This document shows, one piece after another, positions 44,201 to 47,200 of a DNA stretch of 64,000 bases. The DNA is from Syntrophorhabdaceae bacterium (GTDB lineage Bacteria; Desulfobacterota; Syntrophorhabdia; Syntrophorhabdales; Syntrophorhabdaceae), in the NCBI GenBank assembly GCA_963666485.2, contig CAXXUO010000001.1, positions 256,001 to 320,000 on the forward strand. The letters run 5' to 3'. The position numbers were made by a program. Within the stretch, counting starts at the first letter, position 1, and every line of letters starts with the position of its first letter.

Positions 44201-47200
44201 CGCAATACACATATCGATGTGGTTTGCATATCCCCTGAGAATTGTCTTGAGAAGAGGGATCCAGATCCGGCTTTCCTTCCGTACAACGGGAGGACCGTCA
44301 TACATGCGCGGTATGATATATCCGCTCAGCGGGGTATTCTCCACGAACAGGCAGCGGAATGTTTCATTCATGCCCTTCAATCTTCCTTCGATCAATTTGG
44401 CACGACTGAAATACCTGGACAAGGTCGGATACATCCTGGCCTTCAGTTTCCCGACGATCCCGGCCCTGTTATCGACCTGCTCAATCTGAGAAAGCTTCGC
44501 CACGAATGCACTCCTTTCCCCGTAAAAGGGGCGTTAGACCATGTTTTGATAAATATATAATCAAAAGTCAGGAATTTATGTCGTCAAAACTACGAAATAA
44601 TTCGTACGCATTTATGATGACATTCATTTTTTCTGCCTGGCCGACACTTTTCTTTCAAGGCCGGGAGGATCGCCCTGCCTGGACAATACCCGCCTTAAGC
44701 TCATTGCCGCGTTGTTATTTTCCGTTACGTGGCGGGTCCACGGTTTTTTATCCAGGATGGTGCGGATCCCAAAATGGGCCCGTTTTCCCCAGTTTTTGGA
44801 ACGCTATGATCATTTCCGGCCCGTATTCCTTGAGGTGCGACAAATAATCGTGCTCCATTCTTTTCCTGAACAGCGGGCCGCTAAAGACCGTTGCCCAATC
44901 AGGCAGCGGCATGATCGAATCCGCTGAAATGGGATCGTACGATGACCATTTCTTCGCATGCTCTTCCGACCGGAAGAGGTTCATGCGGCTTCAGGCCATG
45001 CCCCAGGGCACTTCCTGTGTCAGTGCCTTGGCAAACGGGACGTTGACATGCCCGACCACGGACGGCGGGTCTATCCCGATTATGCGATCGTCCCGCATGT
45101 GCACGCGGATCGGCTCGCCGCAATCAAGACAGCGTGTTTCAATAAGGACGTCTTTTCCGGGAAATAGCCAGCGTACCGCCAGCGATTCCATCCCTCACTG
45201 GCCGTACCACTTCCGGACCCCTGCTATCGAGATCAAATAGTGGGTAGGGACATTCGAGAACGGCGCCCACGATTCGATATAGTCGGTATCCTTGACAAAC
45301 CAGCACGCCACCGCAGATTGGGCAGCCTTGTGCTGTATATTTCTTGCTTCTTCAGGCGGTAATCCCAGGATGTCCCCGAGTTCGGTATAATGAGGCGCCC
45401 TACCGGTCTTTATGAAATGATCTAACACAGCAGTATATGCTCGCTGAACCAATACATCGTTTTCCATCGTCTCCTCCTGTCCAGGGTAGGGAATAGAACA
45501 CGTGTGGTGGACGAAGAGTATTATTCCCTCGTGAAAACGTATGGTTCTTCGTATCGCCTGTCAAGGCCGGTCCGGAGACAGAAGAATGAGGCAGAGGATC
45601 TATATCACATCTTTTTGAGGGTGACCAGGTAGAGCCTTTTCGGCAACCCGGTTTCTTCAAATTCCTCGATATCTATGACATCATAGCCTTTCGCCAGACG
45701 TTGAACCGTCTCCCGGTCAAAGAAATGCACGACGAAGCCGCCCGTGATCTCCCACATGTCATCACCGTGGTCCGCCCCCGTCCGATAGTGAGGGTCGTCT
45801 GCATTGCGCACGGTGTATATATTGAGTCCGCCCGGTTTCAGGATACGGCGGACCTCACCCGACAATTCTTCAAGCTCGGGGGTTGTAAGGGCCATGCAGT
45901 AAAGCATGTGGGAATAGCAGGCGTCGAAGATACCATCGTCAAAGGGCAAAGTCCTCCTCACATCGTGACATGTCGTCCCGACCAATGACGAAACATTATG
46001 GGCCTTCGCTTCCTTCATGACCGCATCGAGCCCTTCCTCGCTATAATCAAGGGCACAGACCTCAAAACCCTGCTCAGCGAAGAAGATGGTATCGCGTCCC
46101 TGTCCACTGCCCAGCTCGAGGACCCTTCTCACGCCCCGGGCCTTAAAAAGATCGCAGGCCTTCACGGCGGCATAGCTTGGCTCATTCCCGAACATCTGCG
46201 TGTGCTGAACGAACATTCTCTGCCAGTGGCCCCGCTGACCGTTCAGTACGTTCCTGTCCTTTTCATCGCCGTTATCCATTCCGCCTCCGGGCCCGGCCGC
46301 GATCTTTGCGGACCATCCGGCCATTTCATCATTCTATTATAGCAGGGTGCCCCTTAAGGTACATGCGGCCCATTTCCCGGTCAAGATATCCTTGACATAA
46401 AAAATGGTGCTTTCTATACTTTACGCTATAATTCTTGAAAAGAAGCGCAGCTTCATCTTTTTTCTCCTGTACCTGATTTAAAGGACATCTCTCGCAGCAC
46501 AGGAATAATTCAAATCTTCTTTGACGTGGAGACTTTTTATGGCTGAGCTGGATGAAGTACTGATCGAAGCGACGAACGCCAGGGCATCGGACCTGCACCT
46601 GGTACCCGGAGAACCTTTTGTCATCCGGCAATTCGGGCGCCTGATAAAGATGGAGCGCCCCTCCCTGGCCCGTGAAAAATGCGAATTCCTTATTTATGAA
46701 CTTCTCGATGACGAACAAAAGGAGGCCCTCGACAAGAGGCTCCAGCTCGATTTCGCCTATCAGATAGACGGGGTCGCCAGGTTCCGCGGCAGTGCGATGC
46801 GGCACCATGCAGGGATCAGCGCATCCTTCCGGATCATCTCATTCGAGATCCCTACATTTGAAACCCTCGGCCTCCCCGATACGATGAAAAGGATCATGGA
46901 CAATCACCAGGGACTGGTCCTTGTGACCGGCGCGACCGGACAGGGGAAATCGACAACGCTGGCGGCCATGGTCGATTACGTCAATACGAACCGGGCCCAT
47001 CACATCCTTTCAATAGAAGATCCTATTGAATATGTTCACCCCTGGAAGAAATGCGCCGTCAACCAGCGGCAGCTGGGCCGTGACACGCTGGCCTATGCCA
47101 ATGCTTTGCGGGCCGCGCTTCGCGAGGACCCGGATGTCATTGTGGTGGGCGAGCTCAGGGACCTCGAGACGATCGCCCTCGCCATTTCCGCGGCGGAAAC

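Follow-up and report, generated by a model that had tools for sequence, protein, structure and literature searches.

Three short ORFs on the minus strand of the window are, on balance, best explained as one gene for a MerB-fold protein with two selenocysteines, for which organomercury cleavage is proposed; we hold this reading as a whole with modest confidence. The window is the complete 64,000-nt stretch analysed (contig CAXXUO010000001.1, 256,001-320,000 of the forward strand), and all coordinates below are positions within it. Read with table 11, the region 44748-45467 is split into ORFs of 90, 66 and 78 aa. Translation of the minus strand from 45467 to 44748 gave a single frame of 239 codons followed by TAA, with exactly two in-frame TGA codons, at codon 91 (45195-45197) and codon 159 (44991-44993), confirming the one-gene structure claimed in the survey's finding. 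A Shine-Dalgarno-like AGGAGG (45473-45478, minus strand) lies 5 nt upstream of the ATG at 45465-45467, and this start is in register with the starts of homologues.

The protein belongs to the MerB superfamily, scoring 74 bits against Pfam MerB PF03243 (cut-off 27) over residues 70-191. In phmmer alignments to MerB2 (5c17) and MerB (1s6l), U91 aligned with Cys96, E94 with Asp99, C113 with Cys117 and U159 with Cys159. Both TGA codons thus fall at the catalytic cysteines of MerB and codon 94 (Glu, 45186-45188, minus strand) at the position of the proton donor Asp99, as had been reported earlier. E94 was invariant in a 14-sequence alignment of the close family. An AlphaFold2 model was predicted with a pLDDT of 96.5 and a pTM of 0.91, and the only PDB matches that Foldseek returned for this model at E <= 2e-6 were 11 MerB/MerB2 chains. 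By analogy with MerB, Sec91, Sec159 and Glu94 in the places of Cys96, Cys159 and Asp99 would form a two-selenolate site with a carboxylate.

Probable selenocysteine insertion and the SECIS-like hairpins

The sequence evidence indicates that the gene very probably encodes a true double selenoprotein, with selenocysteine inserted at both TGA codons. The genome has a tRNA-Sec (73.7 bits), SelB (TIGR00475, 265.7 bits against a cut-off of 242.25, on a 5'-cut ORF) and a SelD with its own in-frame TGA. Each TGA is conserved together with the protein sequence on both sides of it, and some homologues have Cys at the TGA columns. SelB carrying Sec-tRNA(Sec) would be recruited by an in-gene hairpin at UGA91 and again at UGA159, leading to selenocysteine rather than termination.

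In bacteria, a SECIS element is a hairpin a short distance 3' of the UGA whose apical loop contains G(U). Such a hairpin follows each UGA of this gene, the loops beginning 17 nt after UGA91 and 19 nt after UGA159, and the GU in the loop is invariant. The first hairpin (45162-45188, minus strand) has a core stem of 6 bp (45167-45172 paired with 45178-45183), a loop of 5 nt in which GU lies at 45175-45176, and a lower stem of 3 bp. In the family alignment 94.5% of its cells were paired, compared with 28-58% on sliding. The outermost core pair was GC in 113 sequences, CG in 26 and GU in one and was never unpaired, and the codons beneath the hairpin (96-99) had a normalised synonymous entropy of 0.07-0.43. 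A pair at columns 13-33 was not supported, being unpaired in 74 of 140 sequences. The structure was intact in all 145 TGA forms but in only 4 of 14 forms with a Cys codon (Fisher p = 5e-13, a value overstated by the relatedness of the sequences).

The second hairpin (44961-44978, minus strand) has a stem of 7 bp capped by the loop GGUC (44968-44971). Across the family 96.3% of its cells were paired, four of the seven pairs had changed on both sides, and codons 164-168 had a synonymous entropy of 0-0.22. The stem can be extended to 44956-44986 in the window's own sequence; this lower helix was not conserved in the family alignment (77.6% paired, no covariation). The earlier claim of a hairpin after each UGA is thus borne out by pairing, frozen synonymous sites and invariant GU loops. 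The doubt raised with it, that eight sequences showed little covariation, is resolved by the covariation seen in 140-150 sequences. Taken together, the selenocysteine machinery, the conserved TGA codons, the hairpins and the Cys homologues support the double selenoprotein first proposed in the survey.

Distribution and variation of the family

Within the order Syntrophorhabdales a homologue was found in 12 of 96 genomes and 7 of 26 genera, reproducing the earlier count of genomes. Among the 13 loci in these genomes, both TGA codons are retained in every one of the 11 that are full length. One further locus is ended by a contig edge after the first TGA, and the locus of genome G091 has a frameshift close to the 5' end with both TGA codons kept. 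The spacing of 68 codons between the TGA codons, previously given for eight loci, held in the close loci but was 65 codons in two divergent ones (L022 and L023).

Wider relatives were sought with the same 14-sequence alignment (A2), which found 456 among the species genomes searched. These are spread across many phyla, so the family is not limited to Syntrophorhabdales and is far wider than the earlier count within that order showed. The best 80 genome loci comprised 73 with Sec at both sites, 6 with Cys at site 1 and Sec at site 2, and one ended by a contig edge; for 80 metagenome loci the counts were 68 and 8, with 4 partial or unclear. In a second class, 35 of 35 full-length matches keep the TGA codons. 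Of 159 family sequences, 145 had TGA at site 1 and the other 14 had TGC or TGT; site 2 was TGA in all 156 examined. A FastTree phylogeny of 160 rows required at least 8 switches between Sec and Cys at site 1. Full-length Cys/Cys homologues were also found (P0002-4, P0162 and P0198; identity up to 52%). The lack of a Cys orthologue among the 96 genomes, noted earlier as a gap, is therefore filled by Cys/Sec and Cys/Cys homologues from outside them. We did not find the family described in the published literature.

Genomic context and possible functions

The most likely function, judged from the sequence, is that organomercury-type compounds are cleaved or captured. The two selenolates would bind the metal of an organomercurial or a similar soft organometal, and Glu94 would protonate the carbon, releasing the hydrocarbon. 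The metal would then stay as a bis-selenolate until some acceptor takes it, or permanently, in which case the protein would act as a sink. In the available part of a review (PMC11639659), selones used as MerB mimics are described as cleaving Hg-C bonds faster than their sulfur analogues.

Because the host carries hgcAB (HgcA 448.5 bits, cut-off 275; HgcB 121.3 bits, cut-off 99), methylmercury from the cell or its neighbours would be the most likely substrate. In the order, HgcA was found in 11 of 12 carriers of the family and in 54 of 84 non-carriers. In the second class it was found in 24 of 27 carriers and 51 of 95 non-carriers (Fisher p = 7e-4, overstated as the genomes are kin). This enrichment may result from shared ancestry, habitat or genome size. 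Among the best 80 loci the hgcA check covered 50, namely 29 of 36 in L025-L060 and 21 of 44 in L061-L104. In one genome, G043, a family paralogue comes directly after hgcA-hgcB. A tblastn search with the G043 HgcA and HgcB found neither at any of 80 metagenome loci of that paralogue's clade, a weak negative given many short flanks, and hgcA was found in just 1 of 21 genomes of a more distant clade. Gene linkage to hgcAB is thus not general, and both the missing adjacency and the rarity of hgcA in the distant clade speak against the lyase reading.

The neighbours of the window gene, identified with Pfam, include a methyltransferase, a GNAT-like protein, an RND pump and type II/IV secretion system ATPases (PF00437, T2SSE). 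Genes for merA, merR, merT and merP were absent from the 13 ORFs at 35439-53844, about 9 kb either side, and hence there is no known Hg(II) acceptor nearby, which also tells against the lyase reading. Clustering of flanking ORFs over 81 and then 163 loci revealed no specific conserved neighbour; what clustered together was fragments of the gene itself, antisense ORFs, the fused domains and two-component proteins of a generic kind. The earlier observation that flanking genes are not conserved therefore extends to about 160 loci.

True lyase turnover, argued by analogy with MerB, is a tentative proposal to which we give slightly less than an even chance. Replacement of Asp99 by Glu and scores far under the canonical MerB cut-offs tell against turnover, as does the expected high stability of an Hg(Se)2 product. 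Fusion to cyclase or AAA domains is a sensor architecture and counts against the lyase reading as well. The survey had named the protein a MerB-like lyase. Its MerB fold stands whilst its lyase activity is still putative, and because of these fusions a role in binding or sensing has to be taken seriously as an alternative.

On that account the double selenoprotein would be a non-catalytic, high-affinity module for soft metals or organometals, serving alone as a trap or chaperone and, when fused, as the switch of a cyclase or AAA ATPase. In-frame C-terminal extensions with a further domain fused occur in 29 of the best 80 genome loci, and Pfam identified a class III cyclase (PF00211) in three of three tested and an AAA domain (PF00004) in another three of three. 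Fusion clades lack hgcA except for the one genome in 21, and the missing acceptor gene and conserved neighbour at the loci examined also suit a binding role. Hg(II) held by a bis-selenolate is expected, from general chemistry, to be bound almost irreversibly. A pure binding site, however, would need no carboxylate at the proton-donor position, which is invariant in the close family, and the window protein itself lacks an output domain. The two roles are moreover compatible, as a single cleavage of the ligand by a sensor would combine them. We regard a purely binding or sensing module as unlikely, though still worth weighing.

An improbable alternative is a redox enzyme or redox sensor in which a reversible diselenide links Sec91 to Sec159, with no role for metal. 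The two selenocysteines sit where MerB binds one Hg atom and by analogy should be within bonding distance, sensor-type fusions exist in the family, and most known selenoproteins are redox proteins according to the abstract of PMC9312934. Yet the fold matches MerB only, the protein has no thioredoxin-like motif, and the conserved carboxylate suits protonolysis; a redox role would also leave the hgcA enrichment unexplained.

Least credible by a wide measure is that there is no selenoprotein and the TGA codons are real stops, marking either a gene in decay or three separate small genes, or encode another amino acid: gene callers do split the frame, many database entries are fragments that stop at residue 90 or near 158, and some metagenome entries have W at both sites (probably code-4 gene calls on short contigs), but conservation at the protein level extends over all three segments across many phyla, with both TGA codons retained, a covarying hairpin follows each TGA and decays where the codon is Cys, homologues have Cys rather than Trp or Gly at these columns, and table 11 otherwise holds, as two neighbouring AcrB ORFs (1037 and 1039 aa) are read without interruption.

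With a double selenoprotein of the MerB fold as the preferred reading, a bolder and doubtful proposal is that the two-selenolate domain is a module that seizes organomercury. Standing alone, it would be the long-sought mer-independent degrader or trap of methylmercury in mercury-methylating anaerobes; coupled in other phyla to an AAA ATPase or to the synthesis of cAMP, it would be a sensor domain based on selenocysteine, the first of its kind. Selenium in place of both MerB metal ligands is chemically striking and should make the site both more reactive towards Hg-C bonds and tighter in its hold on the metal. As the family is over-represented in methylmercury-producing genomes, it is a testable candidate for methylmercury degradation or buffering in anoxic communities without mer operons. 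A selenoprotein family of hundreds of species is presently recorded as fragments or 'organomercurial lyase' stubs, and so both selenoproteome counts and mercury-gene surveys miss it. With two in-gene SECIS elements, frozen synonymous sites and decay on the change from Sec to Cys, it also offers a clear training case for selenoprotein finders.

Comparison with MerB, its Cys homologues and SaoL

MerB (plasmid R831b; PDB 3f0o, 3f2f and 1s6l) and MerB2 (5c17) share their fold with the predicted model (Foldseek E 5e-10 to 2e-6, TM 0.41-0.67), and the three active-site positions and Cys117 all align. Identity to the window protein is, however, just 17-23%, and Cys96, Asp99 and Cys159 of the canonical catalytic triad are replaced by Sec, Glu and Sec. 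The models for canonical MerB (EC 4.99.1.2) gave only 27.8 bits (NF033555, cut-off 200) and 29.5 bits (NF009710, cut-off 193), in agreement with the earlier scores. The placement of MerB in a mer operon with merR, merT/P and merA is not seen for the window gene. Given the scores, the altered triad and the lack of a mer operon around the gene, canonical MerB was rejected as its identity.

The comparison also took in the Cys/Sec and Cys/Cys members of the family (e.g. P0202, P0218 and P0162), publicly annotated as 'organomercurial lyase' or 'hypothetical protein'. They are homologues of 40-69% identity and match the window protein in length, motifs and C-terminal region. They differ at the two sites, the first being Cys and the second either Sec or Cys, and the first hairpin is mostly lost where site 1 is Cys.

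SaoL (NF040728) is presented, in the available part of its description (Haft and Gwadz, bioRxiv 10.1101/2022.07.06.499078), as a selenoprotein encoded in the SAO locus, a MerB-like organometallic lyase with a single Sec in a CU dipeptide and with Cys and Asp kept at the other two positions. SaoL and the window protein share the MerB fold (PF03243) and a Sec at the Cys159 position, and both families have anaerobe hosts and are routinely truncated by annotation. The window protein differs in having two Sec, Ala158-Sec159 and hence no CU, and Glu for Asp. It also has some 50 additional residues at the C-terminus, closed by a G-x-F-W motif. The SaoL model scored 41 bits on the window protein (cut-off 140), as before, and 34.9 bits in a whole-genome search of this genome; its cut-off was reached by no match in the 96 genomes of the order. 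The nine-gene SAO neighbourhood was absent from the same 13 ORFs around the gene by Pfam. Score, missing CU motif and missing SAO locus together led us to reject SaoL as its identity, upholding the distinction drawn in the survey. Judged by its sequences, the family is a form of MerB-like protein distinct from both SaoL and canonical MerB.

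Reading frame, selenocysteine machinery and conservation of two TGA codons

The MerB-like gene (minus strand, window 45467 to 44748) was read as a single 239-codon frame that closes with a TAA stop and has exactly two in-frame TGA codons, at codons 91 (site 1) and 159 (site 2). Under translation table 11 this frame gave three ORFs of 90, 66 and 78 aa, matching the three called genes that the survey's finding had joined into one. An AGGAGG was read in the sequence 5 nt upstream of the ATG on the same strand, and the start position was the same in homologues. Table 11 otherwise suits the DNA of the window, as two neighbouring AcrB genes were open for 1037 and 1039 codons and both span their Pfam model end to end.

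The genome encodes a tRNA-Sec (73.7 bits, above the Rfam cut-off) and a SelB that passed TIGR00475 despite a 5'-cut ORF (265.7 bits vs 242.25). Loci L009 (contig C4) and L010 (contig C3) each hold a SelB-like gene with SelB winged-helix domains; one of the two passed the selB model, and the other, a possible paralogue, scored 173.7 bits from an ORF cut at its 5' end. The SelD gene (L105, contig C2:512556-513467, minus strand) has an in-frame TGA near the N-terminus, in the motif GGGU, followed by a short hairpin as judged by eye. Because of this codon, SelD is itself read as a selenoprotein.

The MerB-like gene was present in 12 of the 96 Syntrophorhabdales genomes, and both TGA were kept in 11/11 full-length copies within the order, reproducing what had been claimed for the pair. 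A second class (122 genomes) contained 27 carriers, with two TGA in 35/35 full-length matches. The one-genome-per-species scan returned 456 relatives; among the best 80 of these, 73 had TGA at both sites (U/U), six had Cys at site 1 and TGA at site 2 (C/U) and one was ended by a contig end. In a sister clade sampled from metagenomes, the 80 loci comprised 68 U/U, 8 C/U and 4 that were partial or unclear. L087, one of the 73 U/U loci, has an extra stop codon two codons upstream of the first TGA, and the copy in genome G091 (L020/L024) has a frameshift near its 5' end. Either could reflect gene decay or a mistake in assembly.

Hairpins downstream of each UGA

RNA folding of 13 loci from the order placed a hairpin 3' of each TGA, in agreement with the survey. 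Its reservation that eight sequences showed little covariation gave way with 140-150 sequences, in which two-sided changes were evident. Hairpin 1 (140 distinct sequences) carries a 3-bp lower stem beneath its 6-bp core, and the 5-nt loop above has an invariant GU; 94.5% of cells were paired vs 28-58% when the partner was slid. Its outermost core pair was GC in 113 sequences, CG in 26 and GU in one, and was never unpaired. Hairpin 2 (150 sequences) has a GGUC loop closed by a 7-bp stem with 96.3% of cells paired; both sides changed in 4/7 pairs, a result matched by 1/500 shuffles. The loops start 17 nt (hairpin 1) and 19 nt (hairpin 2) after the UGA. The E. coli fdhF element has its essential loop G and U at a similar distance from its UGA.

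Normalised synonymous-codon entropy, computed over 86 sequences at 84 conserved codons, was 0.07-0.43 at codons 96-99, 0-0.22 at codons 164-168 and 0.44-1.0 at the remaining 75. The best control lies within the family: hairpin 1 kept its 6-bp stem and GU loop intact in 145/145 sequences with TGA at site 1 vs 4/14 with TGC or TGT (Fisher p = 5e-13, an overstatement because the sequences are kin). Judged from these sequences, the gene very probably contains two recoded UGA codons, each with its own SECIS, and would encode a double selenoprotein.

Fold and residues at the two sites

Residues 70-191 of the protein matched Pfam MerB (PF03243) at 74 bits (cut-off 27), and phmmer against PDB sequences matched MerB2 5c17 (E 5e-10) and MerB. 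Counting residues along the phmmer alignments paired U91 with Cys96, E94 with Asp99, C113 with Cys117 and U159 with Cys159, bearing out the claim that both selenocysteines occupy the catalytic cysteine positions of MerB and that Glu replaces Asp99. An AlphaFold2 model built from a 56-row alignment (pLDDT 96.5, pTM 0.91) retrieved 11 PDB chains in Foldseek at E <= 2e-6, every one MerB or MerB2; the remaining matches all had E > 0.3. These data show a MerB fold in which the three catalytic positions of MerB are occupied by Sec, Glu and Sec.

The survey had seen no Cys orthologue in the 96 genomes, but Cys/Cys homologues turned up in wider protein searches. A search of 1.84 billion representative proteins returned P0002, P0003 and P0004 (~40% identity), which are full length and have Cys in both columns, along with many proteins of ~155-159 aa in which site 1 is Cys and the chain ends just short of site 2. 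Further Cys/Cys proteins, P0162 (52% identity) and P0198, came from a second search. Several 'full-length' metagenome protein entries had W at both sites, which we infer to come from short contigs whose genes were called under code 4. On a quick FastTree of 160 rows, the state of site 1 requires at least eight changes; rows that lacked one or both sites, contained stops or lay close to a contig end were excluded, and the Cys/Cys rows have long branches. Three close homologues (P0154, P0159 and P0160, 63-67% identity) have Ser at site 1; site 2 is Cys in P0154, whereas the other two have an insertion ahead of it, and all three may be either genuine variants or errors.

Genomic setting, proposed activity and relation to known systems

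The genome encodes HgcA (motif NVWCAAGK) and HgcB, both above NCBIfam cut-offs (L112 1246-2682, contig C9), and is thus a predicted mercury methylator. Within the order, HgcA was present in 11/12 carriers of the MerB-like gene vs 54/84 non-carriers (p = 0.10), the one carrier without it being a genome 78% complete. HgcA scored above cut-off in 24/27 carriers of the second class vs 51/95 non-carriers (p = 7e-4). Among genomes reached via loci, an HgcA match was found in 24/29 of the close clade (one partial at 102 bits; three of the 29 also counted in the order set) and in 1/21 of the distant clade. The association is real in these counts, but ancestry, habitat and genome size all confound it, and it cannot apply to the distant clades. 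Several HgcA matches reaching towards the N-terminus contained one in-frame TGA, in G046, G091, G106, G113, G115, G116, G117 and G123, consistent with the report of Haft and Gwadz that many HgcA proteins are selenoproteins.

In genome G043, a divergent U/U paralogue starts 176 nt past hgcB, in the order marR-like regulator, hgcA, hgcB, paralogue on one strand (L114, G043:C64:84000-96000, positions 3737-6624), followed by a peroxidase-related fragment (6797-7111). Neither hgcA nor hgcB was found in the flanks of the 80 metagenome loci of this paralogue's subclade. In G093 a single contig carries both the paralogue and hgcA, separated by ~11 kb.

Directly upstream of the MerB-like gene is a SAM-dependent methyltransferase gene (45605-46324, minus strand) that weakly matches TehB (tellurite) and TPMT; on the downstream side lie genes for a GNAT-like protein, an HlyD-type fusion protein and two AcrB-type RND efflux pumps (35439-44503, minus strand). 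None of these recurs beside homologues, and no conserved neighbour was found across 81 or 163 loci, as the survey had described. Going by the titles of the records in the species scan, the family was hosted by deltaproteobacterial lineages (Syntrophorhabdus, Syntrophales, Syntrophobacteraceae, Desulfobulbaceae, Desulfarculales, Geobacteraceae) and by Nitrospirota, Chloroflexota, Actinomycetota, Alpha- and Gammaproteobacteria, Myxococcota and Acidobacteria.

The frame extends beyond the MerB-like domain in 29 of the best 80 loci, 23 of them classed by length alone. Fusions of ~388-396 aa were assigned in frame to class III adenylate/guanylate cyclases (L064, L071, L073, L074, L076, L079, L082, L083, L086, L087, L089-L096, L099), with Pfam finding the cyclase domain in 3/3 tested at ~393 aa. 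Those of ~514-519 aa were assigned to AAA ATPases (L062, L067, L072, L080, L084, L097, L100, L101), with the AAA domain in 3/3 tested at ~517 aa. The fused MerB-like domain was two-Sec or Cys/Sec, and hosts of these fusions were Chloroflexota, Actinomycetota, Alphaproteobacteria and Acidobacteria.

In MerB, two ligands grip the metal and an acid protonates the carbon, and we propose a mechanism by analogy. The two selenolates would bind the metal of an organomercurial, Glu94 would protonate the leaving carbon, and the metal would stay bound until passed on. A review reports that selones, as MerB mimics, break Hg-C bonds more quickly than the corresponding sulfur compounds (PMC11639659). We hold a true lyase to be a tentative reading, a little short of an even chance, because the expected stability of the Hg(Se)2 product, the absence of any acceptor gene and the sensor-like fusions all count against simple turnover. 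A non-catalytic trap or sensor is in our judgement rather unlikely. A diselenide redox role for the pair is improbable beside a fold whose close structural matches are MerB or MerB2 throughout. That the protein is not a selenoprotein, with a conserved hairpin behind each TGA, is scarcely credible. A lyase remains our preferred, if tentative, reading.

SaoL was the only MerB-like selenoprotein found in the literature, appearing in a table row of PMC9312934 and, with one Sec, in a table row of PMC13188914. The Haft and Gwadz preprint describes it as part of a nine-gene locus, with one Sec in a CU motif and with Cys and Asp retained at the remaining two sites. No two-Sec MerB relative was found in full-text literature; subscription journals or supplementary tables could still contain one. 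The window's protein failed each SaoL criterion tested as well as the cut-offs for canonical MerB, its NCBIfam matches all being sub-threshold (SaoL 41 bits, cut-off 140; MerB 29.5 and 27.8, cut-offs 193 and 200), and the claim that it is distinct from SaoL holds. The survey's finding is real and its interpretation supported: the protein can be placed only at the level of the MerB superfamily, of which it represents a new, widespread, unannotated two-selenocysteine branch, with a function that we infer.
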